From the NCBI GenBank assembly GCA_030390025.1, contig CM059439.1, positions 45,570,001-45,634,000 on the forward strand: 64,000 nucleotides of DNA. The letters run 5' to 3'. The notes under the pieces are model-generated. The model saw nothing but the letters and a program-made list of their open reading frames with translations. It was not told where the DNA came from and did no database searches. Position 1 is the first letter of the stretch. Every line of letters starts with the position of its first letter. Shown here in pieces: positions 2,671 to 56,163 of the stretch. The position numbers and the translations under genes were made by a program. The DNA is from Squalus acanthias. Its lineage: Eukaryota.

Positions 2671-3994
2671 CTTTACATCAATGCTGATAAGGTACAGGGT
2701 ATTTGGTTTGAAACAGAGCTATACAATGGTGTGATTAAAAAACCCAAAAATAATAAAATTAACAAACTGATAAATGATTTCATGATCTCATTAAAGAGGC
2801 TGACAATCTTTGAAGGTTTTTAATTAAAAATTTCTATTAATATTGAAATATCAAAATAGGTAATTTAAAACCCCAGGAAGAGGCTTGCAGGCTTCACGGA
2901 TATAACAACATCTTCTGATTGATACAGTTATTTCAAAAAATGCAGGTACAGTCATGCCAGAGCAGAATTTGCTGAACACAGAAGTATCAAAAAGATGCAA
3001 TGGTTTGGATACTGCTTGTTGATAGTTAGAGTGAGAGCACAGCTCAGCCTCCAGTGACATCCTACATGCAGCCACACTCCCGAATAAAGATTTAATTAAC
3101 ACTAAACTGCCAAAGCTTAAGAATTCTTACTTCAGTGTTAATACATCAGGACAATCTTCCAGCATATCTCCAGGAACTTGGAAAATACACAAGGATATCC
3201 TGCTCAGAACCTTTTAGTAACAAACAACTCCGTAACCACTGTGCATCTCTGACTGTGCAGGCAAATGAAAAATCTGCAGGAAATTAAACGGCAATAATGG
3301 AGAGGTGCTTGCCAATTGCAAGGTTTGATCCAAAAAGGTCTCTATTGTGTAACATAATTTCAGACTAGTAGACCCATAAATAAATACTTCTAATCTTCAG
3401 AAGAGGAACTTTGCATATTCTACTTACTACTGTAAACTACAATCACTCATAAAGGAAACTCAATAGGGCTGATTTTCCTCTCCCTAATAGTGCCCGCCCA
3501 GAAGTGGGTAGACTGCAGAGGAAAAATGGGCCTTAGTCCTTTGCTCCCATTCTCCCCTGAATTGCAATGAACACAAATTTCCTCTGTAGCTTTTCTAGTG
3601 CCTGCGCTTACAGAAGGTGCAGCAATATGTTCAATTTCATACCAACACCAGAGGCCCCCCCCTGCACACAGATTTCCTCGAATAGCACTAGGTGCAGTTT
3701 AGGGCCAAGCTGCTCCCCTCAAAAAAACCTAGCACTACTGATTTCACAGCTACTGTTTAGGTGCTATCTGTTTCAAGGGGCAGGCTGGTATTGTCAGGTT
3801 AAATCTTTATTTTTAGCTTTTTAAATATAAAAAAATGGTTTTGCTGCTCAGAACATTGTTAGTCTTCTATATAACTCTATATAACTCGCAGTTGCTCTTT
3901 TCTGAGCCACTAATAACTGTTTCCATACCACAGAGGCTGTTTTCAGTACTGCACCAAGCCCATTTTTACTGGCTCACATGGAGGCAGATGAGGG

Positions 3995-4926
3995 GACCTT
4001 CCCTCCATCATAAGGTCAGAAATGGGGATGTTCGCTGATGACTGCACAGTGTTCAGTTCCATTCGCAACTCCTCAGATAATGAAGCAGTCCGTGCTCGCA
4101 TGCAGCAAGACCTGGACGACATTCAGGCTTGGGCTGATAAATGGCAAGTAGCATTCGCGCCACAGAAGTGCCAGGCAATGACTATCTCCAACAAGCGAGA
4201 GTCTAACCACCACCCCTTGACATTCAACGGCATTACCATCGCCGAATCCCCCACCACCAATATCCTGGGGGTCACTATTGACCAGAAACTTAACTGGACC
4301 AGCCACATAAATACTGTGGCAACAAGAGCAGGTCAGAGGCTAGGTATTCTGCGGCAAGTGTCTCACCTCCTGACTCCCCAAAGCCTTTCCACCATCTACA
4401 AGGCACAAGTCAGGAGTGTGACGGAATATTCTCCACTTGCCTGGATGAGTGCAGCTCCAACAACACTCAAGAAGCTCCACACCATCCAGGACACAGCAGC
4501 CCGCTTGATTGGCATCCCATCCACCACCGTAAACATTCACTCCCTCCACCACTAGCATACTGTGTGTACGATCTACAAGATGCACTGCAACAACTTGCCA
4601 AGTCTTCTTTGGCAGCACCTCCCAAACCCGCAATCTCTACCACCTGGAAGGACAAGGTCAGCAGGCGCATGGGAAAACCATCACCTGCAAGTTCCCCTAC
4701 AGGTTACACAACATCCTGATTTGGATGTATATTGACGATCCTTCATAGTCGCTGGGTCAAAATCCTGGAACTCCCTTCCTAACAGCACTGTGGGAGTACC
4801 TTCACCACAAGGACTGCAGCGGTTCAAGAAGCGGCTCAGCACCACCTTCTCAAGGGCAATTAGGGATGGGCAATAAATGCCGGCCTTGCCAGTGACGCCC
4901 ACATCCCAGAAACAAATTTTAAAAAA
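3995..4926 (+). mobile_element. 5'-truncated CR1/L2-group LINE (RT C-terminus + 3'UTR), same family as 27390-30330
   Basis: ORF 4022-4555 contains the FADD RT motif, DLDDIQAWADKWQV and LGVTIDQKLNW. Sequence is nearly identical to 29392-30330 and ends in an A-rich tail. Confidence 0.95.
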
Positions 4927-4994
4927 GCAACCACAAGCCCCCTCGCAGTTGCTTTTTTCTGAGCCACTAATAACTGTTTCCATACCACAGAGTA

Positions 4995-5165
4995 CAATCG
5001 CCCCCTCCCCCCAACACCTCCTCCTCACCCTCCCCCAATCGCCCCCTCCCCCCAACACCTCCTCCTCACCCTCCCCCAATCGCCCCCTCCCCCAAAACCT
5101 CCTCCTCACCCTCCCCCAATCGCCCCCTCCCCCCAACACCTCCTCCTCACCCCCACCCTAATCCC
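4995..5165. repeat. C-rich minisatellite, ~4 copies of a ~41-bp unit
   Basis: Unit CAATCGCCCCCTCCCCCAACACCTCCTCCTCACCCTCCCC starts at about 4995, 5036, 5077 and 5117. Confidence 0.95.
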
Positions 5166-6684
5166 ACCGACTGTACACCTGTTCCGCACCACCTAGAATA
5201 AAAAGTGAAGCCTCACAGTCAAACCAGCACCCTCCTCCTATTTCTGTACCATCTGCATTCTCACGCTTGTTTACTTTGTTTTTCTACCGACTGCTCGGTA
5301 TCGTTTTGGCACCATCTTACCTGTTCCCAACGAGGCAGACGACAGGCGCACTCAGACTGATAAACATGAAGACTACCAACATGCAATTCAAAGTTTCTGG
5401 CACGCATGCATTAATTTAGGGACTTACTGTTCTTCATGACAAAGTTTTCAGATAAAAATCCTTCCCCATTACCTTAAAAAAACCAAAATCCTTCTAGCTC
5501 TCCCATGGGGCGTTACCCGTACCCATCCCTTTAATGGTGCTGGTGCCTTTAAGGCCGAGGGAGTACCCAGACTTCCTCCTGTCTTCTAGCTAATAGTATG
5601 CCCCCAAGTAGCACCTCCTTTATTTTAATTAGGCCCAAAAGTAAGTTTGGTCACTGTGGGCTCTACACGAATTGCTCCCAGACAACAGGAAGATCAGCCC
5701 TAATATCTGCTGCTTCTCAGACAATGTCATCTTCATAAAGAGGCTCAGTCATGTTCTGCTGCAAGATAGAAGGTTTTGCTGAGGGAGGGGGGGGGGAGAG
5801 TAAGGAAGTAGGAAATGGGGACTATTTTTCACTGCACCACTGGTTTGTCAAACCAGGAACCGAACCAAGATAGTACCTTGCATGACTACCCAACACAACA
5901 CAATACGTATGTCCGTATTGCTCTAAAGCATTAAACAGCAACTCATGTTCTCTGTTAGACCTATTTGTGTTCTCCCCCCCCCCCCCCCCCCCCCCCCCCC
6001 CCGCCCCCTTCAATTCAGAACACTCCTTGTAACCTTTCTGGAAACACTGAGCCAAAGTAAAGGAAGAATAAAGAAGATCTGCTCATTTGGAAAGAAAACC
6101 ATTAAAATCATTTATTTTAAAGCTGGAGAATCAAAATTTTTTGTTTGACTTTATTTGTGCCTACAACAGTACTACAAAACAAAAAGTGGTCTGCATACAG
6201 ATATTTTGATTTAGATTATTAAAAAATACATAAAAAGAGAGGATGACCAAATAATACAGCACAGTAGGTGCAGCAAGGATTTGATGCACTGTACAGTGAC
6301 AGAATATGTTGCCAATACCAGCAGGCTTGAAAGAAAATTAATTTTCAAAAGGACTAGACAGTGAATTGATTTAAGACATAAATTATGGCACTGGCTCTTC
6401 TACTCCTGAGGTCTGAGTGTAAATCCAATCTGGGAGTGAGGGATGAGTGTCCACTGTTCCTGACAGCTTTATAGTTATAACTTTAATGAATTGCTGGCTA
6501 ATACAGAACTACCTCAATTTAGAAATATTTGCATTGAAAGTCCTAGAGTGACCAGGAAGAGAATGAAAATTATCAGCCTGCGGTAGATAAACCAAACTGA
6601 GCAGTTAACCCTCCCATTCTTTTAGAATTAAAGTCTGTAGATCATTTGTCCTAGCTAATCCTTCACATCCTAGATCTACGATAA

Positions 6685-27204: not shown

Positions 27205-30200
27205 AGGGCGACTTTAGCCCTACCCACCCAGGAGACTTATCCGCTGACATCCTGCTCCGTTCCCATTGTCTTCTATTTTAACCTCATCTCTGAGCAGGTG
27301 GCAAAGAAGCCAGTGCGTTCCTTCAATAGATATGCAGGTCGGAGGTCTGATGACATCATCGGGCCCCGATAGCTATTTTAATCAGTGGCCTGGGTGAGGA
27401 ACGGCAGCATAGTGGTTATGTTACTGGACTAGTAATCCAGAGGCCTGGACTAATAATCCGGAGACGTCAGTTCAAATCCCACCACGGCAGCTGGGGAAGT
27501 TAAATTTAGTTAATTAAATGAATCTGGAATTAAAAAGCTAGTATCAGTAATGGTGACCATGAAACTATCAGATTCTGGTTCGCTAATGTCCTTTAGGGAA
27601 GGAAATCTGCCGTCCTTACCTGGTCTGGCCTATATGTGACTCCAGAGTCACAGCAAAGTGGTTGACTCTTAACTGCCCTCTGAAATGGCCTAGCAAGCCA
27701 TTCAGTTGTACACAACCACTACGAAAAACAATATAAGAATAAAACCGGACGGACCACCCGGCATCGACCTCGGCACCGGCTTCGGATAAGACAACAGCAC
27801 ACCCAGCCCAGTCGACCCTGCAAAGTCCTCCTCACTAACATCTGGGGATGTGTGCCAAAATTGGAAGAGTTGTCCCACAGACTAGCCTGACATAGTCATA
27901 CTCACAGAATCATACCTTTCAGCCAATGTCCCAAATTCCTCCATCACTATCCCTGGGTATGTCCTGTCCCACCGGCAGGACAGACCCACCAGAGGTAGCA
28001 GCACAGTGGTATACAGTCGGGAGGGAGTGGCCCGGGGAGTCCTCAACGTTGATTCCGGACCCCATGAAGTCTCATGGCTTCAGGTCTGCACAGTCCTAGT
28101 GGAGACGAAATCACGTCTTCAGACTGAGGACACCCTCCATTGTGTTGTGTGGCACTACCACCGTGCTAAATGGGGTAGATTCAGAACAGATCTAGCAGCT
28201 CAAAACTGGGCATCCATGAGGCGCTGTGGGCCATCAGCAACAGCAGAATTGTATTCCACCACAATCTGTAACCTCATGGCCCGGCATATCCCTCACTCTA
28301 CTATTACCATCAAGCCAGGGGACCAACCCTGGTTCAATGAGGATTGCAGAAGTGCATGCCAGGAGCAGCACCAGACGTACCTACAAATGAGGTGCCAACC
28401 TGGGGACTCTGCAACACAGGACTACATACATGCTAATCAGCGGAAGCACCATGCTATAGACGCTAAGCGATCCCACAATCAACAGATCAGATCAAAGCTC
28501 TACAGTCCTGCCACATCCAGTCATGAATGGTGGTGGACAATTAAACAACTAACGGAGGCTCCATGAATATCCCCATCCTCAATGATGATGGAGCCCAGCA
28601 CGTGAGTGCAAAAGACAAGGCTGAAGCATTTGCAACCATCTTCAGCCAGAAGTGCCATGTGGATGATCCATATCGGCCTCCTCCTGAGGTCCCCACCATC
28701 ACAGAAGCCAGTCTTCAGCCAATTCGATTCACTCCACGTGATATCAAGAAACGGCTGAGCGCACTGGATACAGCAAAGGCTATGGGCCCTGACAACATCC
28801 CGGCTGTCGTGCTGAAGACTTGTGCTCCAGAACTAGCCGCGCCTCTAGCCAAGCTGTTCCAGTACAGCTACAACACTGGCATCTATCCGACAATGTGGAA
28901 AACTGCCCAGGTATGTCCTGTCCACAAAAAGCAGGACAAATCCAATCCGGCCAATTACCGCCCCATCAGCCTACTCTCAATCATCAGCAAAGTGATGGAA
29001 GGTGTCATCGACGGTACTATCAAGCGGCACTTACTCACCAATAACCTGCTCACCGATGCCCAGTTTGGGTTCCGCCAGGACCACTCGGCTCCCGACCTCA
29101 TTACAGCCTTGGTCCAAACATGGACAAAGGAGCTGAATTCCAGAAGTGCGGTGAGAGTAACTGCCCTTGACATCAAGGCAGCATTTGACCAAGTGTGGCA
29201 TCAAGGAGCCCGAGTAAAATTGAAGTCAATGGGAATCAGGGGGGAAAACTCTACACTGGCTGGAGTCATACCTAGCACAAAGGAAGATGGTTGTATTTGT
29301 TGGAGATCAATCATCTCAGCCTCAGGACATCGCTGCAGGAGTTCCCCAGGGCAGTGTCCTAGGCCCAACCATCTTCAGCTGCTTCATCAATGACCTTCCC
29401 TCCATCATAAGGTCAGAAGTGGGGATGTTCGCTGACGATTGCAGTATTCAGTTCCGTTTGCAACTCCTTAGATAATGAAGCAGTCCATGCCCGCATGCAA
29501 CAAGACCTGGAAGACATTCAGGCTTGGGCTGGTAAGTGGCAAGTAACATTCTCGTCACAAAAGTGCCAGGCAATGACTATCTCCAACAAGCGAGAGTCTA
29601 ACCACCGCCCCTTGACATTCAATGGCATTACCACCGCCGAATCCCCCACCATCAACAGCCTGGGGGTCATCATTGACCAGAAACTTAACTGAACCAGCCA
29701 CATAAATACTGTGGCTACAAGAGCAGGTCAGAGGCTGGGTATTCTGTGGCGAGTGTCTCACCTCCTGACTCCCCAAAGCCTTTCCACCATCTACAAGGGA
29801 CAAGTATGGAGTGTTATGGAATACTCTCCACTTGCCTGTATGAGTGCAGCTCCAACAACACTCAAGAAGCTCAACACCATCCTGGACAAAGCAGCCCGCT
29901 TGATTGGCACCCCATCCATCACCTTAAACATTCACTCCCTCCACCACCGGCGTACCGTGGCTGCAGTGTGGACCATCTACAAGATGCACTGCAGCAACTC
30001 GCCAAGGCTTCTTCGACAGCACCTCCCAAACCCGCAACCTCAACCACCTAGAAGGACAGGGGCAGCAGGCGCATGGGAGAACCATCACCTTCAGGTTCCC
30101 CTCCAAGTTAAACCCCATCCTGACTTGGAAATATATTGCCGTTCCTTCATCGTCGCTGGGTCAAAATCCTGTAACTCAACCCCTAACAGCACTGTGGGAG

Positions 30201-30383
30201 TACCTTCACCACACGGACTGCAGCGGTTCAAGGTGGCGGCTCACCACCACCTTCTCAAGGGCAATTAGGGATGGGCAATAAATGCTGGCCTGGTCAGTGA
30301 TGCCCACATCCCAGCAACGATTAAAAAAAAGGCAGGAAACTGACAGAGAGCATGCAGTTGAGATGTGGGAGTTAAAATCACCT
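27205..30383. mobile_element. GC-rich MITE (27205-27389 + 30331-30383) split by the LINE insertion
   Basis: Left GGGCGACTTTAGCCC matches the reverse complement of the right end GAGTTAAAATCACC. Confidence 0.45.
27390..30330 (+). mobile_element. ORF1-less CR1/L2-group LINE with a tRNA-derived 5' head; decayed copy (frameshifts, deletion in APE)
   Basis: A box 27405-27415, B box 27470-27478. APE starts VLLTNIWG..PDIVILTESYL from about 27825. RT motifs: KAMGPDNI, NYRPISLLSIISKVME, QFGFR, LDIKAAFD, GVPQGSVLGP, FADD. Poly-A end at 30330. Confidence 0.95.
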
Positions 30384-37676: not shown

Positions 37677-37862
37677 GGGGTAGATCTTGACTTTGTGCAA
37701 TTGTTTCAAATGGGTGATAGCGAATTGGCAGCCCATGTTCCATCTCTCCTGATTTTTATTTCCACTGACTTCAATGGAAATAAAAATTGGGAGAGATGGA
37801 AAATGGGCTGCCGACTTGTTATCACCCATTTTATACTATCGCACAAAGTCAAGATCTATCCG
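37677..37862. mobile_element. Near-perfect ~185-bp hairpin MITE
   Basis: GGGGTAGATCTTGACTTTGTGC pairs with GCACAAAGTCAAGATCTATCC, and pairing continues to the central TTTTTATTTCCA/TGGAAATAAAAA. Confidence 0.9.
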
Positions 37863-39160: not shown

Positions 39161-41201
39161 GGTCCAGAAATTCGTTCGGGCTCCTCAGGGTCCAATATAG
39201 CAGGCGGCCACTCATTCCGCACAGGAAATGTGCCACTCGCCATATTGGATCGGGCTCCTCCGTCAGCATCCAGGGCATACATCAGAAGCATTTAAAAGGC
39301 TCATTATAATTTTTACATAAGGGTCCTAAGGGGGACAAGGGTTAGCTTTTGATATGAAGGGAGAGCAGAAAGATGAGTGGCTGCTGATAGCAGCTGCAGT
39401 TTGACATATAGGGCTGGATTTTTCCAACCACGGTGGGTCTGGGGCGGGCGACGTCGGTGGCGTGTGGGGACCTCGCATCTGTATCGATCCCGGCCTCCAA
39501 CATGATATTCCGATGATGGGCCTTGTCAAGCCCGCCCTGCGAGGTTCCCGGCCAGTTAGAGGAAGTGGGTCTGATGACGCGTCAACAGCCGGTTTCCTTA
39601 AAGGGACCCTGTCCAAATTGATTGACAGTTGCGCTGTCAATGTTCTGGCAAACACTGACACGCACTGCACAAAAGGTGCAGGGCTGTACCCAGGCTCTCC
39701 CATTACTCCTTTCATATGCTTATGGAGGGAGTCACAGCACGCAGGGAGGTTCTCTTCCCTTCCAATGGGCGGAAGAGACCTCCCCAGGAGATCAACATTG
39801 CACAGGAGGGCACAAGCAGGGATGTCGTCAGGTGTACCAGGCTGCAGTAGCGCAAACCTTTCGATGATCTCAGTAGATCACGAAACATTAGTACAAAGCC
39901 ACACTCAGCCTCATCCTGCTGTGCCACTCATCACATCCCCATCACTCTGCCTTCCCTTCCCTACTCCTGCACATCTTTACTCACACCAACTTACCTTGCA
40001 CCTCCACCTATCCCTCTCTATTGACATTATCACTTCCCCATCTCACTAGCCACCCCTCACACTCACCCTCATCCTCCTGCAAGCATACCAACTAACAACA
40101 CACAAGGATAGGCACTTGGGTGTTTTAGCCAATGTTCATGTGAAGTTTCTGTTAATGTGGTGTCAAACATTGAAATCTTTATCTTCAACACTTTGCGTTC
40201 TTGGACAGATTTGTGTGCACCTTTGGATGTGGCTTAGTCAGTTGCAGTGAATGTGAGACATAACGTCCCCACCCCCCCAATGGTGAGGCGTCTGAAAGGA
40301 ATGGCTTGGACATTGTAGGGATGCTTTATGGTGCTGGTGTGGGGTGGTGCCAACCTGGTGCATCATGTGGCAGCCAGGGGGTACAGTGTTAAGTGAAGCT
40401 AATCTGGACATGGTGAATCCATCGCTGGCGTCCCGGGCAGCAATGTGCGCGGGTGTGTCCAGTGCAGCATCAGTTGATTGCGGAGAAGGTTGGTATGGAT
40501 GTTGATGCTGCTGGTGTGCCTGGTGAATTAATGTGTGAAGAAACCCTGTATGACATATCCTCCAGCACTGCCACTTACCACGGCCATGACTCTGCCCCTG
40601 CCCGTAATGACCAGCCTGTCTTCCTCCGGAGGGGAAAGGGTGTGCGGGCGGGCTCGGCCTCCTCCGGTAGCCGCCTCCTGCCTCATGTTGTGCGTGACCT
40701 TCTTCTGCAAGAAAGAAGGGAGTGTGTTGGAGACAGCATTGTGAGCTGTTTTGAAAATGTGCTGGTCACGTTGAAATAGTTTGTGTGTCATGTGCAAGGT
40801 GTGAGAAGCGAGGGTTTCAATAGTAGTGAGAGTGTGAGAGGTGCAGTGAAGTGTGTCTCAGTGATTGTAGGAGAGTGAAGGTAAGCGGGGGAGGGGAGTA
40901 TTGTGAGTAGTGAAGCGGCAGGTGGTGCAGGTGTGAGGAGAGAGAAGTTGAGGTGAGAGACAGGATTCTTACTATGACAACTCTGGTGAGGTCATTGAAC
41001 TTTTTCTTGCATTGTAGCCATGTCTTGGGAGCTAAGCTCACGGCATTAACCTCCTCTTCCCACTGGCAGCAGAGGTGTTGCCCGGAAGGCTTTCTTCCCG
41101 CCTTGGGGGACAGGACAGGATCTCCCTCTTCCTGTCCACTGCCTAGACCACAGCCCCGTCCCCTGCGAGCCCATTTTCAGGTGCGATCGAATTTCTAGGC
41201 C
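39161..41201. mobile_element. Composite PIF/Harbinger-derived element with two convergent Myb/SANT gene remnants
   Basis: TIRs GGTCCAGAAATTCG and CGAATTTCTAGGCC. Minus strand encodes KTWLQCKKKFNDLTR, spliced to KKVTHNMRQEAATGGG. Plus strand from 39680 encodes RAVPRLSHYSFHMLMEGVTARREVLFPSNGRKRP. A second TIR-like start lies at 39411. Confidence 0.8.
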
Positions 41202-44200: not shown

Positions 44201-46155
44201 GGGGAGGGGGGGGGGCGGGGGGCAGGGAAGAGGTACAGAAAATGTAAGTTGTAGGTAAAAAGGAGGAACTTTTTTTGGAATGAGTCCAAAACATCTATCT
44301 GTCACTCAGATTTCCAAAACACTCTAGATTAAGACTAGAAACCTACTGCACCGGTGGTAAAAGCATCACTCCAGAAGAACCTAAGTGCAGAGCAGTTGGT
44401 AACTAGACAGGTTTATTTGTGAATTAGAAAGCATTAATCTAATTGAGGACATTGAGATGACATCATAAAGTCTACAAGTGGTTCCTGTTTGTCATCTGAA
44501 CCCCAATATTAGATTGTTTTTAAATTTACCTGGAGCTACCTATTACTATGTATAATAGACACATGGCAGTGAATTTTCTTTGCAAATGTTTAAGCTTTAC
44601 TAAGATGCCTGCACATTGCCTATCAAAAATGTTGTGTGATACAGGACCTGAAGGTAAATTGATTTTATGATATGCAGACAAAAGGATGGTGATGAATGAC
44701 CTGAGGTACTACCACATTATTTTTACTCACATTAATTTATTTTTAATACAGTGAATCACATCTTTTAAATAGTATTTTTATAATGCCACAGGCAAACAGT
44801 CCGAGCTTCCCTCTCTTCTCTGTACTAGGAGATTGCAATGGTACAATAGCACAGCCCACGCTCTCCCACCTGGAAACATAGTGGCAAATATGCTGCAAAT
44901 TATCACAACAGTGGCTACTATTCAGTGGTACTTTTCGCCCAGATTCAGAATACTTTAAAAGATAATTAATTACAGGTCCAAATAGGTAAAAGCACAGTGG
45001 CAAAGTTTGACTGTTGACAGTTTCACACTTGAACCTATGTAGACAAATGAAAGAGGAAATGTCCTTTTAAAACGGGGCTGTGCAACTATACAGGACCTAG
45101 AACTTTGGCATTATATACTCTGCATAAAAAAAAAACAGGTGCTCATTAGAATCAGCTCCACTTCTTGCTCTCTCTGTCTTTCTCTCTCTCACACACACAT
45201 ACACTCACTTAAAAAAAAAACCAGGTGTAAATTATGATTGTAACCCTCATTAGGAAACTATTACCATAGTGTTTTGCACATCATTTTTTTTGGAAGAAAT
45301 ATTAACTAATAAATATCCAGCTTTCTGGTTTTAAAAAAAAAAGAAAATCAACAGGATTGTTGTCATCTGTAATATTCTCCTTAATTTGGCCCGATGAGTA
45401 TTGAAACTCCCTCAGGGGAACAAATTTCTTACGTTCGATCGACAAACCTCATTCTCTTTTTTTATTTAGCAGCCATAAGGCAGTTTATTTTACCACTTTT
45501 TCTACCATCTGTACCAACTTTCCCCACAGACCGCTGCAGCTGTCCAGTGTAATGTGTTCAGTTCCTTTTATTTTCTGTCCAAATAGCTCGTAAACAATTC
45601 AGCAATATTTATAACTGTTGTGTCCCTTTTGTTCTGGCTAGCGGAAGGAGGCCTGGTCCTCTTCTTTTTTGATGAAATATCACCTATCTCACGGTATATT
45701 GCCACAATATGTGATAAAGGATGATAGAAATTTGTTTTTAAAATATCTTGAAAAAAACTATGCAAATATATCATTAATAATTAAAACTCAAAAGCAAAAT
45801 GGAAATGCACAAGAATGAAACTCCACAACAGAAGGCCACCATATGTCCTTTTTGTTTCAAAACATAAAGGCATGAGATATGATGGCATGTCAACAGTGTC
45901 ACCCATCATTGCTAGTTGAAAGTTTTATTTTAAATCCAGCCAATATTTCATATTTGAAATTATATGCAGCATCTATACATCAGCTGCTCTTCTAGTGTCT
46001 GTAAAAATATTTCACAGACAATCAGGCACTATATAAACTGTGACTGTCCGAGCAGATATAGGAACATAGGAGCAGGAGTAGGCCAGTTAGCCTCTCGAGC
46101 CTCTTCCGCCATTCAATGAGATCATGGCTGATCTGCGACCCAACTCCATTTACTC

Positions 46156-46404
46156 TTCGCTCTCTTCACTCAGTGGGTTGTGAATCTTTGGAATTCTCTA
46201 TCCGAAAGTTCTGTGGATGCTCAGTCGTTGAGTATATTCAAGGCCAAGATAGATAGACTTTTGGCCTCTAGGGGAATCAAGGGATATGCGGATCAGGCGG
46301 GAAAAAGTGGAGTTGAGGTAGAAGATCAGCCATGATCTTATTGAATGGCAGAGCAGGCTCGAGGGCCATATGGCCTACTCCTGCTCCTAATTCTTATGTT
46401 CTTA
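46156..46404 (+). mobile_element. CR1 3'-end fragment inserted in opposite orientation in the 3'UTR of the long CR1
   Basis: GTTGTGAATCTTTGGAATTCTCTA..GATCAGCCATGATCTTATTGAATGG..CCTACTCCTGCTCCTAATTCTTATGTTCTTA. The host sequence resumes at CCCGCCTTTGCCCCATATCC. Confidence 0.85.
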
Positions 46405-48442
46405 CCCGCCTTTGCCCCATATCCCTTAATACCTTTGGTTAACAAAAATCTATCAATCTCCGATTTAAAATTAACAATTGATCGAGCATCAATTGCTGTT
46501 TGCGGAAGAAAGTTCCAAACTTCTACCACCCTTTGTGTATAGAAGTGTTTCCTAATTTCACTCCTGAAAGGTCTGGCTCTAATTTTTAGACTATGCCCCC
46601 TCGTCCTAGATTCCCCAACCAGCAGAAATAGTTTCTCTCTATCTACCCTATTTGTTCCCCTTAATAGCTTGAAAACTTCGATCAGATCACCCCCATGACC
46701 TTCAAAATTCCAGGGAATACAACCCTAGTTTGTACAATCTCTCCTCGTAATTTAACTCCTGGACTCTGGGTTTCATTCTGGTAAACCTACGCTGCACTCC
46801 CTGCAAGGCCAATATATTCTTCCTGAGGTGTGGTGCCCATAACTGGTCACAGTATTCCAGGTATGGTCTAACGATGGCTTTGTACAGCTGTACTGTAGCT
46901 TCTACCCCCTTGTATTCTAGTCCTCTAGATATAAAGGCCAGCATTCCATTAGCATTTTTGATTATTTTCTATATCTGTTTTAATGATCTATGCACATGGA
47001 CCCCAAAGTCTCTTTGGACATCCACTGTTTTTAGCTTTTCACCATTTAGAAAGTACCCTGTTTTATTCTTTTTAGGTCCAAAATGGATGACCTCACATCT
47101 GCCTACATTGAAATCCATTTGCCACAGTTTTGACATTCACTTAATCTATCAATGTCTCTTTGTAATTTTATGCTTTCATCTACACTGCCTACAATGCCGC
47201 CTATCTTTGTGTCATCTTTCTATGCCATCATCTAAGTCATTCATAAATATGGTGAATAGTTGAGGCCCCAACACATCCTGCCAGTTAGAGTACCTGCCCA
47301 TTATCCCTACTCTCTGTCTCCTGCCGCTCAGCCAATTTCCTAACCAGGCCAATAATTTGCCTTCAATTCCATGGGTTTCAACCTTAGTTAACAGTCTCTT
47401 AGGAGGGACTTTATCAAATACCTTCTGAAAGTCCATATAAATAACATCTATGGGCATTCCCCTGTCCACTACTTTAGTCACCTCTTCAAAAAATTAAATC
47501 AGATTCATCAGGTGTGACCTACCTTTCACAAATCCATGCTGGCTCTCTCTGATCAACTGAAAATTTTCAAGGTGTTCAGTCACCCTATCCTTAATTATAG
47601 ACTCTAGTAATTTCCCGACAACAGATGTTAGGCTAACTGGTCTATAATTCCCTGGTTTCCCTCTCTCACCATCCTTAAAAAGCAGAGTGACATGCGCAAT
47701 TTTCCAATCTAACGGAATGGTTCCTGAATCCAGAGAACTTTGGAAGATTATAGTTAGGGCATCTGCAATGTGCTCACCTACTTCCTTTAAAACCATCTGG
47801 TCCTGGGGATTTGTCACTCTTTAGTGCCATTATTTTCTTCATTACTGTTATTTTACATACGTTAATTTTGTCGAGTCCCTGTCCCAGATTCGATACTAGT
47901 TTCCTTGGGATTTCTGGCATACTATCCTCTTCCTCTACTGTAAATACCGACACCAAGTAATTATTCAACATTTCCTTATTATCATTGACAAAATCACCGC
48001 TAGCAGTTTAAGGAGCCAACATTGCTCCTGACTACCCTCTTTTTCCTAATGTAATTGTAAAAATTTGTGTTGGTTTTAATATCCCTTGCATGTTTCTTTA
48101 CAAACTCCCTTTTTGTAGTTCTTACTACTGTATCTGTTTTGTGACCCTTTGCTATTCTTTGTATCTTTCCCATTCGCCAGGATCTGCGCTATTTTTTGCA
48201 GTTTTGTATGCTTTTTCTTTTAGTTTTATGTCGTCTCTTACCTCTTTCGTCGTCCATGGCTTTTTTTTTTGGCAAGTAGAGCTCTTGCCCCTTAGGGGTA
48301 TAAACTGCTTCTGTATCACAAATTCTTTTTTGAACCGCTCCCACTGATCTTGTCATTTTACCCATTAACAGATTTGCCCAATTTACTGTGGACAGTCTGT
48401 CTCATCGCATTGAAGTCAGCCTGACCTAAATCTAGAATCTTA

Positions 48443-49789
48443 GGGGGCGATTTTCCCACTGGAGGCGAGATGGAGGCGGGATTCAGTTTGGGTGGGTTTG
48501 AAACTCGCCTCCACTGATAGGTTTCAAAAATTTGCGATTTTCCCATGATTGTCCACTTGATTTCAGAGGTGTGGGATGCCTTGTTCAATTAGTGTTTCGG
48601 GACTGAAACTCGCCTCTGTTGACAGCACTTTTCCAGTCTGATTTTATGGCTTCTTGCTCCCTTGGCTCACTCCACAGCATTTCTGCTTCTCCTGCACCAC
48701 CTCCAACATCTTTTGAGAAACCTATGTCCAATTCCAAGGCAAGGGCCTACCTGAGGCTCTCAGATGAGGCGCTGCAAATGTTGTTTGAGGGGGTGAGAGC
48801 TAGCATGGAGGTGCTCTTCCACTCATCTCGGAGGAAGAGGCCTGCCAAAGAAACCAAGGCTGCGAGAGTACAGCTGGCAAGGGATATAACCTCCAGATCT
48901 GTACGCAGATTGGGAGACTATTTCTGTGTATTGATGAAATGCCATCCCTGTTGGAAAGCATTAAAATGATTTGAAGCCAAAATGTTGGCGTTATGCCATC
49001 TGTTCTTTCATCTAAGGCAGCTCCACATTGCAGGCACCGCCACACTTGCGATGTCTGGTTGGTGGCCTGAGTGAAAGGAGGCCAGAAAGTCATGTCCATT
49101 GTCAATGATGTCCTAAGATGGAGCCAAGGACATGTGCCAACATGAGCAATGGGCAACCTATGCAAATCTGGCCATGATAAGTTCATCCCTTGCATCCCGG
49201 GCTCTGACCTCCTCCTCCTCCTCCTCCTCCTTGTCCGAGGTCCATGCAGAAAGAAATCGAATGGTTCCCATGCTGCTTGTAGATGCCTCCTTTGGGGAAG
49301 TGCTCATTGCAAGCGGGGAGAGGGTCTTCCAAGGAGGTCCCACAGTTGATTGAGTCAAGCTGCAGCACCTCCGACTTCAGAAGGCCTTCTAAAAGTGCTC
49401 AGAGACCTTTCAAAGCCAAGGTCTGGCACGTGCAAGTAAATCCTTGCTACAATAAATGATGTCTTGTTAGACTTGCAGCAGTGAGGAGGCCACCCACGAG
49501 TCAACCCGCCAGGTTTACCTGGCGTGGTTTAGGAGGTGCGTGGATCACACCGAAAAGCTGGAAAAATCACGAGGGCCTCTCAAAATAGGCTTAGAGAGGC
49601 CCTTAACAAGCATTTAAGGAAGTTAATTAGCGCAATGGCCAGCTGGAGGCGGGAGCGTTTCCCGACCTCCAAAACCGGCACCAGCAAAATCCCACGGAGG
49701 CGGGTTCCGAACCCAACCTCTTTGAATCTAATTTTCCCGCCTTTCCCGCCTCCAAACCCGCCTCCTCCGACATCAGAAAAATCGCCCCC
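48443..49789. mobile_element. Non-autonomous PIF/Harbinger transposon (1347 bp) nested in CR1 ORF2
   Basis: TIRs GGGGGCGATTTT and AAAATCGCCCCC; TTA TSD at 48440-48442 and 49790-49792. Removing it restores CR1 ..ETATKILDL... Internal Myb/SANT remnant RLSDEALQMLFEGVRASMEVLFHSSRRKRP. Confidence 0.92.
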
Positions 49790-52247
49790 TTAGTAGCTGT
49801 TTCACGTTTCTCCCTTTCAAACACTACGTTGAACTCGATCATGTTATGATCGCTATTAGATAAAAGTTTATGCACCATTAGGCTGTTAACTAAATCTGGC
49901 TCATTACTAAATTTTATATATGTCATGTCCCCTTGTTGGTTCTAGGACATATTGTTGCGGAAAACTATCCCGGACACACTCAAGAAATTCACTACCTTTC
50001 TGACATGTACTAGTCTGCTTATCCCAATCTATATGAAAGTTAAAATCCCCCATTAAAACTACTCTGCCTTTGCTACATGCTTGTCTAATCTCTGCACTTA
50101 TACAATCTAGCACTTCAGAGCTGCTACCACTACAGTCTTAAATCCTTTCCTATTTCTTAATTCTACCCATAAAGTCTCCATTGCCTGCTTACCCTTCGTT
50201 ATATCCTCTCTTATCATGGAAGTGAATTCATCCTTAATCACTAAGGCTACTCCTCCCCCTCTGCCATTTTCCCTATCTTTCCTGTGGACCTTATAACCTT
50301 AGTTCCCAGTCCTGACCATCTTGCAGCCATGTCTCAGTAATGGCTACCATGTCATACCCTCCAAGTTGAATTTGCGCCTGCAGTTCATTCAATTTATTCC
50401 GTGCATTTGTATAAAGAATGCTTATTTGGGCCACACACCCTAACCTGTTCTTCAGCTCTAATGTTTTACTCACATGTTTCTTATTTCTCTCTCCTGGTTT
50501 AATCACTTTACACCTTTTAGTTTTCCCCTTACCTGTACTGCCTAAAGCACAATTTCTGTTACTCTACTCTCTTCCATTTCATTTGTTTTTGAACTATTAT
50601 TTATACTACATTTTCCACCTAAGCCCTCCCCCCACCTCCCCCCCACCCCCCCCCCCCCCATTTACTAGTTTAAAGTCCTTGTGACCGTCCTATTTATCCT
50701 TTCCGCTAGGACTCTATTCCCAGCCTGGTTCAGGTGGAACCCATCCCAATGGTACAGTTCCTTCCTGTCCCAATACTGGTGCCAATGCCCGATGAAATGG
50801 AACCACTCTTTCCCACACCACTCCTTCAGCCACGTGTTCACCTCCCTAATCTGCTTATCCCTATGGCAATTTGCACGTGGCTCAGGTAATAATCCAGAGA
50901 TTATAACCCTTGAGGTCCTGTTCTTTAATTTAGCTCCTAGTTCCTGGTACTCCCCAAACAGGACCCCTTGCCTACTCTTCCCTATGTTGTTGGTCCCAAC
51001 ATGGACCACAACGACGGGATCCTCCCCCCTCCCTCTCCAAAATCCTTTTAAGCCGGTTCGAGATGTCCCTCAGCCTGGCTCCAGGTAGGCAACATACCAT
51101 GTTGGACTCTCGATCTTGCTTACAAAGGATGCTATCTGTCCCCCTAATTACTTAATCCTCTACAACTATCACATTACGCTACCCCTCATCCTCCTCCTCC
51201 TCCACCCGCCTTTGGACAGCCTCCTGCTCCAAGGTGCCATGGTCTGCATTCTGGCTGTCCTTCCAATAGTCTTTATCCTTATCCTCACAGGTAGCAAGTA
51301 CATTTTACTTGTTGAAATAGGTCAGTTTCTGCAGATCCTCATTCTCTATCTCACCTGGGTTCCCCTTGCTCTGCACACTATTGGTCACACCAACCCCGTT
51401 CTGAACCTGTACCTCTCTACAAGATGTGACCGAGATCTGGAGCAAACTGTCCAGATACTGCTCCCCCTCCCTTATGTGACGGACTGTCTCCAATTCGCAC
51501 TCCAGCTCAATGACTCTGAGCGGGAGAGATTCGAGACAGAGACATCTACTGCAGATGTGGTTGCTCAGGACATCTCGCTGTCCACAAACTCTCAAATACT
51601 GCAGTCTAGACATACAACCTGCTCTGCCATATCTTAGTCTAGATTATTTATATCAACTTAAATATTTTTTTCTTATTTTACACACTAACTTGCACTAAGT
51701 ACTAAAACACTGGAAAAAAAATTTAAATGCCTCTATTTATTTGACGACTATCTAAACTTACTAGAAACTTAAGACTTGTCGCTGATCTGATCTGGAAAAA
51801 AAACACTCACCAGCTACTCACCAATCAGCTCCTTCCATTGTGCTGACATCACTTTAGGTGTTTTTACCTCTCTTCGTGATGCTCGTGCTCCCTCACCTCC
51901 AGGCTCTCCGATTCTTGAACTTAAACTCCTCCCTCTGTGTTGATTTAGATATGCCGTCACTTTGTGAATTTTTCCCCTCCTCTGTTTTGGTCTCTGCTTT
52001 GCTGCACTGCCTCTGCTGCCTGGTTCCCGCACTGCTTTTAAATGCTGCACTCTCCCGATGTGCTTTGCTGCACGTCCCTGATATATAAGGAAGAGGGTGT
52101 GTCTTCTCAGAAATGGAAGCCTTTATATACACTGCAAGGTTACTTTGCATCCACAGCTTATGGACAACAGTACAAAAACTTCCATAGCCAGGTGCTACGT
52201 AAGGTAGGACTGTCACATTTACTATACCATGCAGCTCATTTACCTAG

Positions 52248-52436
52248 AATCAGCTGTGGTAGCACTCTCAAGTCTAAGTCAAAAGATCATGGGTTCAAGC
52301 CCCACTCCAGAGACTTGAGCAGGCTGAGGGAGCGCTGCACTGTCGGAAGTGCCATCTTTTGGATGGGATGTTAAACCGAGGCCCCGCCTGTTCTCTCAGG
52401 TAGATGAAAAAGATCCCATGGCTCTATTCGAAGATG
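52248..52436 (+). mobile_element. Deu-domain tRNA SINE, 3'-truncated
   Basis: GTGGTAGCACTCTC..GGGTTCAAGCCCCACTCCAGAGACTTGAGC..TTAAACCGAGG..CTCTCAGGT..AAAGATCCCATGG matches 530-750. Confidence 0.85.
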
Positions 52437-54113: not shown

Positions 54114-54527
54114 CTGGGTACGGTAGCATAGTGGTTATGTTACTGGACTAGTAATCCAGAAGCCTGGACTTGTGATCCTGAGTTCAAATCACAGCTGGAG
54201 AATTTAAATTCAGTTAATTAAATAAATCTGGAATAAAAAGCTAGTATCAGTAACGGTGACCATGAAACTACCGGATTGTCGTAAAAGCTCATCTGGTTCA
54301 CTAATGTCCTTTAGGGAAGGAAATCTGTCGTCCTTACCCGGTCTGGCCTATATGTGACTCCAGACCCACAACAATGTGGTTGACTCTTAACTGCCCTCTG
54401 AAATGACCCAGCAAGTCACTCAGTTGTAAAAGGCAGCTCACCACCACCTTCTCAAGGGCAATTAGGGATGGGTAATAAATGCTGGCCTTGCCAGCAACGC
54501 CCAAATCCCATGAATGAATTAAAAAAA
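54114..54527 (+). mobile_element. tRNA-derived SINE, an internally deleted derivative of the 27390-30330 LINE
   Basis: A box TAGCATAGTGG at 54124-54134, B box GTTCAAATC at 54182-54190. 54114-54428 matches 27390-27710 and 54430-54527 matches 30230-30330. Confidence 0.93.
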
Positions 54528-55994
54528 GGTTGCATAATACTATACAATGTGACCACATCAGTATGCACACCAACATGGAGATTGCTAATGGGTTGATTCA
54601 GCAGATGCATACCTTCCTTTAGCAGACTTCGCTAATGGTGGTGATGTGGAAGGGCCGACATATGTTTGTGCGGCTGACATTTGCCCTAGAATATTGATGC
54701 AGACCCTCTGGTTTGTATGCTGCGGCCCAGAGAAGGCCCTGTGGTGGATCCAGCAACAAGTGGCGTCTTCCCACCACTCAATAAGCAGAGTGTGGACTGT
54801 GTTCCCTTGGGTGGCACAGCTTCTGTGGTAGCAGCTGGTTCCTCCTGACCAAAGGACTTAAATGTCCCACTGTTATCTGCTTACTGTCCTCTTCAAATGG
54901 TTATAGCCTTAGGGTTTACTGCAGAAAAGCCGGAAGAAGATGATTCCTCTGTAGAGGCATGAAGAACAAAGTTCCACTAATGGCTATGCAGTAAAAATGC
55001 ACCTGAAATGCAGGACTGCTGCAGAGGCCAGTGAGGCACAGAACAAATTATACAATTAAAATGCAGCTGAGGAATATGGCATAGGACTTTACTTACATGA
55101 ATAAAATGTGTTTACAACAACAACTTGCATTTATATAGCACCTTGAACGTAGTAAAACGTCCCAAGGTGCTTCACAGGAACGTTAAAGTTCGACACCTAG
55201 CCACATAAGGAGATATTAGGGCAGATGAGAGATAGGTATTAAGGAGCGTCCTAAAGGAGAATAGAGAGGTAGAGAGTCTGAGAGGTTTAGGGAAGGAATT
55301 CCAGAGCTTAGGGACTTGGCAGCTGAATGCATGCCCACCAATGGTGGAGCAATTAAAATCGGGGATGCACAAGAGTCTAGAATTGGAGAAGCGCAGATGT
55401 CTCTGAGGGTTGTAGGGCTGGAGAAGGTTACAAAGATAGGGAGGGACGAGGCCATGGGGGGATTTGAAAACAAGGATGAGAATTTTAAAATTGAGGCGTA
55501 GCTTAACCGGGAGCCAGTGTAGGTCTGTGAGCACAGGGATGATGGGTGAATGGGACTTGGTGCAAGTTAGGACACGGTCAGCCGAGTTTTAGATGAGCTT
55601 AAGTTTATGGAAGGTGGAAGATGGAAGGCCGGCCAGGATTGCGTTGGAATAGTCAAGTCTAGAGGTAACAAAGGCATGGATGAGGGTTTCAGCAGCAGAT
55701 GAGCTGAGGCAGGGGCGGAGTCGGGCGATGTTAGAGGTGGAAGTAGGCGGTCTTAGTGATGATGCGGATATGTCGTCGGTAGCTCATCTCAGGATCAAAT
55801 ACGATACGAAGGTGGCAAACAGTCTGGTTCAGCCTCAGACCATTGCCAGGGAGAGGGATGGAGTCGGTGGCTAGGGAATGGAGTTTGTGGCAGGGACCAA
55901 AGACAATGGCTTTGGTCTTCCCAATATTTAGTTGGAGAATATTTCTGCTCATCCAGTACTGGATGCCAGACAAGCAGTCTGACAATTTAGAGAC

Positions 55995-56163
55995 CAACAG
56001 CTTTATTTGAAATCACAAGCTTTCGGAGCACTGCTCCTTCGTCAGGTGAAGGAGCAGCGCTCCGAAAGCTTGTGATTTCAAATAAAGCTGTTGGACTATA
56101 ACCTGGTGTTGTGCGACTTCTCACTTTTGTCCACCCCAGTCCAACACTGGCATCTCCACATCA
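55995..56163. mobile_element. Penelope-like (PLE) truncated insertion with inverted pLTR, nested in L2
   Basis: 15-bp TSD TGACAATTTAGAGAC (55980-55994 and 56164-56178); 47-bp inverted arms 55994-56040 and 56048-56094 with one mismatch. Confidence 0.8.
56013..56049 (-). ncRNA. Minimal type I hammerhead ribozyme motif
   Basis: UCAC-CUGACGA-A-GGAGC-AGU-GCUCC-GAAA-GC-UU-GUGA: conserved core CUGANGA/GAAA, 5-bp stem II, palindromic minimal stem III, 4-bp stem I. Confidence 0.7.

Follow-up and report, generated by a model that had tools for sequence, protein, structure and literature searches.

The element at 27390..30330 of a 64,000-nucleotide stretch of Squalus acanthias DNA (assembly GCA_030390025.1, contig CM059439.1, positions 45,570,001-45,634,000; hereafter the window, to whose positions all coordinates refer) is a decayed copy of an abundant 3.3-kb family of long interspersed nuclear elements (LINEs) of the CR1 group. 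[quoted passage not shown] In this family, a tRNA-like head with A and B boxes and a body of ~220 nt are followed by a single open reading frame (ORF) encoding an apurinic endonuclease-like domain (APE) and a reverse transcriptase (RT), and by an A-tail (Table 1). On balance, we regard the family as an autonomous LINE that carries a captured SINE head and is likely transcribed by Pol III and translated from a non-AUG start. Pol III transcription is the most economical reading of these sequences, with Pol II transcription from the captured head as its main rival.

The junction of head and ORF is family-wide and extends beyond the window copy, for which the first-pass annotation had described it. 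A body-to-APE junction search of the 3.7-Gb genome gave 6073 first-look candidates, and all 40 that were scored span the junction (40/40). Junction-selected copies are fused by design (39/39); the element they define is 3.3 kb long, and 22 of them reach the same 5' end amid unrelated flanks. Selection by APE protein only, which avoids this circularity, was applied to 40 copies from the 150 matches listed, 20 taken for long frames and 20 from the top of the list. Thirty-three of these run into the body or head, two have head or body pieces beyond a gap, and five end in the LINE-specific leader between body and APE, their 5' ends lying in unrelated flanks. With a distant invertebrate APE query, 19 of 20 copies reach the body. 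In the two APE-selected samples pooled, the frame continues into the head or body in 52/60 copies, and neither another common 5' end nor an ORF1 was found among these 60. Moreover, 28 of 30 loci selected by their heads could be classed: 21 are LINEs by motif, four more have a visibly deleted leader, one has the leader followed by another repeat, and two are short derivatives. No headless parent was found in the Squalus genome among 20 copies fetched from the 150 APE matches listed for the invertebrate query.

The copies are ~95% identical to the column majority and form a ladder from older to younger subfamilies, with variable 5' truncation, a fixed 3' end with a simple tail and no long terminal repeat; no convincing target-site duplication was found in 15 full-length copies. 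Gene models contain stretches that are 72-85% identical at the protein level, and those of them with a visible source name come from Heterodontus, Heptranchias and Pristiophorus; the ORF is therefore spread among sharks. Among the sampled loci, L090 was dropped as a 99.8% duplicate of L056, L164 and L165 were dropped from the head tree because they share the flanks of L160, and L104 was left out of the 44-copy alignment though independent.

The Pfam domains PF03372, PF14529 and PF00078 all lie in one natural frame of 844 aa, which is the longest stop-free frame among the 150 APE matches listed, none of which has an intact ORF. The commonest codons of the alignment columns contain no stop across all 936 positions. 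Between the old and young subfamilies there are 28 synonymous and 17 non-synonymous differences (ratio of non-synonymous to synonymous rates, dN/dS, 0.19, p 4e-8). Correspondingly, non-CpG variants present in five or more of 44 copies give a dN/dS of 0.24, and singletons give 0.84; because the copies were partly picked for open frames, the singleton value is lowered, which works against this contrast. APE alone shows nine synonymous and six non-synonymous variants among 68 copies (dN/dS 0.23 versus 0.84, p 0.018). These data indicate that the ORF, APE included, was under purifying selection in the source lineage, and thus that it was translated in source elements; the selection on both APE and RT supports the earlier suggestion of an autonomous LINE. 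With 3.3 kb and a selected ORF, the element falls outside the definition of a SINE as short and non-coding, which holds only for its ~420-nt derivative. Only ~430 nt precede APE in full-length copies, and the ORF1 that lies upstream of ORF2 in canonical CR1 and L2 elements is absent; in the window copy, the ~430-nt spacing originally reported is borne out by a first APE codon 425 nt from the 5' end.

The coding strand of the family is depleted of Pol III terminators, of which TTTT and TVTTT are the shortest that work (PMC8466645; this and the other papers are cited for the parts drawn on here). Against an expectation that keeps amino acids and codon usage fixed, TTTT plus TVTTT occur at 0.42/kb on the sense strand of 44 copies (observed/expected ratio, O/E, 0.26), no site being present in more than 7/44 copies and all being minority variants; on the antisense strand they occur at 5.8/kb (O/E 0.94). 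Sense-strand values are 6.2/kb (O/E 0.75) for CR1, 7.1/kb (1.12) for L2 and 3.9/kb (0.80) for a headless relative. The ORF would be expected to hold about four sites, yet no site is common to most copies. In the family alignment of 3313 columns, no four-column window has a T majority, and there are seven T3 runs, compared with 27-40 runs of exactly three bases for A, G or C. The depletion is specific to T: in 15 copies the O/E is 0.20 for T4 and 0.55 for T3, versus 0.92-1.05 for A3, C3 and G3. The corresponding T4 and T3 values are 0.68 and 0.90 in CR1 (10 frames), 0.82 and 1.00 in L2 (eight frames, as two of 10 loci lacked a frame of at least 380 aa) and 0.93 and 0.89 in the headless relative. 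The LINE is thus depleted under the codon-preserving null as well as by comparison with CR1, L2 and the headless relative.

For the window copy itself, the counts agree with those read by eye: no run of T4 or longer and 13 runs of A4 or longer on the sense strand, a single T4 at the 3' end of the second, truncated copy, and 30 sense-strand T4+ runs over the 6.0 kb of the conventional CR1 at 46061-52079. The middle of APE is indeed lost from the window copy, and that part is without a common T4 in the other copies. Taken alone, the zero of this copy is no more than borderline (4.5 expected under base shuffles, P 0.008; 2.3 under dinucleotide shuffles, P 0.07). The proposal of selection against terminators stands as far as depletion beyond the codon-preserving null is concerned, and ongoing selection was not detected in recent source variants.

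The A and B boxes and the anticodon-like arm lie where they were originally placed, and the arm has in addition a tandem duplicate. Model support for the head as a tRNA is weak: ARAGORN called no tRNA in it, and the Rfam tRNA covariance model scored 15.3 bits (E 3.3). Aligned to the genome's own tRNAs, the head exceeds shuffles by z 3.9-5.4 for the three best of six types sampled; the label "Thr-like" is not established. The LINE begins 8 nt ahead of the A box, where a tRNA gene starts, and this 5' end is identical to that of the SINE. Just upstream of the first G of the head, a few TTAC-like bases are shared by several unrelated copies (L100, L057, L050, L041 and L167); either the transcript begins slightly further out or the element prefers certain targets.

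The young LINE subfamily is distinguished by four substitutions in the head, found in 9-11 of its 11 copies and each absent from at least 13 of 14 SINEs, and therefore the head has been inherited with the LINE. One of the four falls at a variable A-box position and none in the B box. The boxes are present in most heads and retain the consensus bases; by eye, two of the substitutions replace A-U with G-U pairing in the tRNA-like stems. In the SINEs, every junction leaves the LINE sequence where the body ends and resumes at one of several points in the tail, and two SINE-type derivatives retain LINE leader bases, which indicates that at least some of the SINEs are deletion products. The tree of the module common to LINE and SINE is poorly resolved. 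The body looks like the Deu domain, and the SINE is a candidate SacSINE1/Deu element.

At the 3' end, AATAAA lies ~45 nt ahead of the A-tail, and another AATAAA lies within the first 140 nt of the element. A run of T4 or longer precedes the tail As in 14/64 tails, most tails having a single T, and no T3+ run was found at five internal T/A boundaries. The T-run shows no age trend (rho -0.02, n 38), and the combined length of tail T and A stays near 10, as expected of later mutation. Because of this constancy, and because growth of such runs after insertion is documented (PMC8466645), we give the tail T-runs little weight; as terminator relics they are ambiguous and look like post-insertion growth. 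The LINE tail resembles those of the T+ SINEs B2, Dip and Ves (PMC8466645, PMC3575423, PMC12358842) in having AATAAA, a variable T-run and an A-tail, but T+ SINEs are short and non-coding and most LINE copies have a single T. The element is covered by contigs of four presumed RNA runs, from which start, strand and polymerase are not readable.

The first in-frame ATG of the ORF is codon 249, past APE, which upholds the earlier statement that no in-frame ATG lies between the upstream stop and APE. The in-frame stop given with that statement, at 27681, is not that of the family, since it entered the APE frame through the loss of 1 nt in the linker of the window copy; the family stop is the TAG of a start-stop mini-ORF, ATG-GCC-TAG, which closes the APE frame upstream in nearly all copies. 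Read-through of this mini-ORF alone is insufficient, because 50/68 copies carry a further in-frame TAA. An ACG 34 codons ahead of APE is in frame in 79/84 copies. The site reads ACG in 63 copies, ATG in 10, ACA in nine and otherwise in two, which is the pattern of CpG decay from ACG, and the peptide that follows is basic and of the same length as the extension before APE in the related protein P0014. In most copies the APE start is overlapped by an upstream ORF (uORF) that lies in the +1 frame and is AUG-led. A new ATG in this frame arose in the young subfamily; 21/21 copies that have a new upstream +1-frame stop also carry this downstream ATG, and 0/29 copies without the ATG have the stop. 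The two leader variants shared between copies are synonymous in the APE frame. Leader indels keep the frame in 58/66 cases, which we discount because the leader contains 3- and 6-nt repeats.

We favour near-cognate initiation by re-initiation over a -1 frameshift from the +1 uORF. The frameshift is a minor option: the +1 ATG and stop pattern counts as a single event, a canonical slippery site is not seen, and neither leader variant alters the APE-frame peptide. Human L1 ORF2 would be a precedent for the former, its translation being described in a review as AUG-independent and perhaps dependent on re-initiation (PMC11485995). In both systems an APE-RT protein would thus be made without need of an AUG, but L1 is transcribed by Pol II, capped and bicistronic with ORF1.

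In an RT tree built without named clade references, the family stands apart from the CR1 and L2 elements of the Squalus genome and groups with L110, P0001, P0014 and P0015 from metagenome assemblies (support 100/99; RT 40-50% identical). These relatives likewise have one APE-RT ORF, but they start with a Met at APE or about 30 residues before it. L110, the only one with DNA, differs further in that no tRNA head was detected and nine sense-strand T4 runs are present; it has a ~310-nt G/C-rich 5' region ahead of its ATG (L110:427-735) and a (TAA)n tail. P0001 had no match among viral contigs.

Some BovB LINEs carry SINE-derived 5' pieces. DeuSINEs with tRNA heads and an L2-type tail occur in chimaera, sharks and coelacanth (PMC5499810, PMC4824008, PMC3747384, PMC2746220). 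SacSINE1/LmeSINE1 (463 bp, versus ~420 for the SINE here) share with the present family a tRNA-derived head with A and B boxes, a central body, a LINE-derived tail and their occurrence in cartilaginous fishes; however, they are non-coding and have a tail in common with L2-2_CM, whereas here a head of this type stands at the front of a coding LINE that lies outside the L2 and CR1 of the genome. The parts of PMC5499810 drawn on here make no mention of a LINE carrying the head. SINEs built from the 5' and 3' parts of a partner LINE, as is the SINE here, are described for Bov-A/Bov-tA, RTE and Vingi (PMC5786205). Here there are several SINE junctions, some keeping LINE leader bases. In the published model, a small-RNA head joins a deleted derivative and the LINE stays under Pol II, whereas here a full-length CR1-group LINE has the head; in the parts drawn on, the LINE 5' sequences that PMC5786205 finds in SINE bodies are from RTE and Vingi only. 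None of the titles and abstract openings in our literature search described an autonomous LINE with a tRNA head or with Pol III transcription; that search did not extend to Repbase, Dfam or most subscription papers, so that the structure may already be deposited.

We infer from the Deu-type SINEs, the Met-led relatives and the headless L110 that the LINE captured a SINE head. An ORF1-less, AUG-led ancestor like L110 or P0001 would have received the SINE 5' module by template switch or recombination, and this module would have replaced both its promoter and its start codon. T-runs would then have been purged, because they would cut the transcript short. TFIIIC and Pol III may make an uncapped 3.3-kb RNA ending at a T-run at or beyond the tail, which would be adenylated via AATAAA, in the manner of T+ SINEs. 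Translation would begin at the conserved in-frame ACG or close to it, probably with ribosomes re-initiating after short upstream ORFs, and the protein would use target-primed reverse transcription to copy the RNA that encodes it. SINEs whose ends match those of the LINE would be mobilised in trans, some having been born by internal deletion. Taken whole, this picture of a self-copying, coding Pol III retrotransposon, with a 3.3-kb uncapped and terminator-purged RNA, a non-AUG start, abundance in several shark lineages and its own SINEs made by deletion, is tentative and falls just short of a lean in its favour. If true, it would erase the boundary between LINEs and SINEs. A high-copy natural family with a Pol III head and a selected, AUG-less ORF makes the question of a long Pol III transcript serving as mRNA directly testable in vertebrates, and it allows testing whether the conserved SINE body aids translation. 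Even under Pol II, this would be a LINE that acquired its entire 5' end from a SINE and went on to regenerate SINEs, the reverse of the usual flow.

Several points weigh against Pol III transcription with non-AUG translation. Pol III RNAs are as a rule uncapped and untranslated (PMC2666806). The upstream ATGs, which number eight or more, form a barrier whichever polymerase is at work. RNA folding of six segments from head, body, leader and tail was no better than in shuffles (z -0.84 to +1.52), giving no sign of an internal ribosome entry site, a pseudoknot or a frameshift structure. The missing ORF1, which the first-pass annotation had taken as pointing to Pol III, is real throughout the family but is not evidence for Pol III and is rejected as such, because it is ancestral and common to the headless L110. 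The zero of single copies is modest (~4 expected, P 0-0.013 in terminator-free copies), and, all copies being one lineage, the depletion is a single evolutionary sample set against three control families. Variants that create T-runs are no rarer among shared than among private changes (p 0.47, low power). The low T content (20%) and the avoidance of TT, for which z is -3.5 to -4.2 compared with -0.9 to -2.3 in the controls, could have causes other than a terminator purge.

These observations bear on the strongest alternative, an autonomous LINE with a captured head that is transcribed by Pol II, which is possible but in our judgement unlikely. Its RNA would be supplied by a promoter in the head or body or by host read-through, it would be capped, and the ORF would be reached by leaky scanning or re-initiation; T-poverty would reflect composition or avoidance of U-rich splice or surveillance signals. 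LINEs are normally transcribed by Pol II and capped (PMC2666806), the AATAAA ahead of the A-tail fits such a transcript, TT avoidance is general and extends beyond T4, and ongoing selection on T-runs was not detected; moreover, the A and B boxes could persist because the lineage changed little (~2% between subfamilies). However, terminators remain numerous in CR1 and L2 of the Squalus genome and in the headless relative, the 5' end lies at a tRNA-gene start shared with the SINE, and an AATAAA falls near the beginning of the element.

A division of labour, with template RNA from Pol III and protein supplied in trans by a minority of capped, perhaps spliced or read-through, Pol II transcripts, is improbable. 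It would account for both the purge of terminators and the lack of an AUG while requiring no uncapped RNA to be translated, and ORF2p alone can mobilise Pol III RNAs in trans (PMC2666806), but purifying selection along the copying lineage is most simply kept by action in cis, and under pure trans supply ORF-dead copies would take over. A non-autonomous "giant SINE" whose ORF is dead, or a SINE nested by chance in front of a truncated LINE, finds some support in the lack of an AUG before APE and of an intact ORF among the APE matches listed, but it is very improbable, since family-wide fusion rules out nesting, a dN/dS of ~0.2 that includes APE rules out a dead passenger ORF, and 60 copies show no alternative 5' end.

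Table 1 Features of the LINE family in the window
Feature	Position	Strand	Remarks
tRNA-like head	27397..27490	+	full-length copies begin within a few bases of the same point, with unrelated flanks
A box	27405..27415	+	first base mutated in the window copy (C; T in most copies)
Anticodon-like arm, tandem duplicate	27424..27461	+	units 27424-27440 and 27445-27461
B box	27470..27478	+	
Body common to LINE and SINE	27491..27709	+	contains several upstream ATGs
Start-stop mini-ORF ATG-GCC-TAG	27685..27693	+	shares the APE frame in most copies, where its TAG is the upstream limit of that frame
LINE-specific leader	27710..27821	+	~34 codons when read in the APE frame, with a basic product
Candidate near-cognate ACG start	27721-27723	+	within the leader, in the APE frame
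Single APE-RT ORF	27822..30268	+	936 codons in the family; window copy broken by frameshifts, stops and a ~340-nt deletion at 28086
3' tail common to LINE and SINE	30236..30330	+	AATAAA 30277-30282; A8 30323-30330
Second LINE copy, 5'-truncated	3992..4926	+	
SINE	54116..54529	+	head and body as in the LINE, followed by the final ~95 nt of the latter; ~420-nt element

The truncated second copy is bracketed, at some distance from its ends, by a 51-nt direct repeat (3885-3935 and 4942-4992, 98% identical); a C-rich 41-nt tandem repeat comes next (4961-5199). The conventional CR1 used as a control lies on the minus strand, its ORF1 being a GDSL-esterase, and a stretch inside it near 48600-49500 looks like an unrelated insert. 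The 3' part of an L2-like LINE at 55172-56012 on the minus strand was used to fetch the L2 controls and is adjoined by a 54-nt inverted repeat (55987-56101). A second tRNA-headed SINE family, which we take to be HE1/V-SINE-like, is represented by two copies ~81-85% alike (542-814 and 52257-52401). Several overlapping frames of 120-214 aa on both strands at 39326-40779 probably belong to another decayed element, and a 91-nt inverted repeat at 37678-37861 is 86% complementary with a 2-nt spacer.
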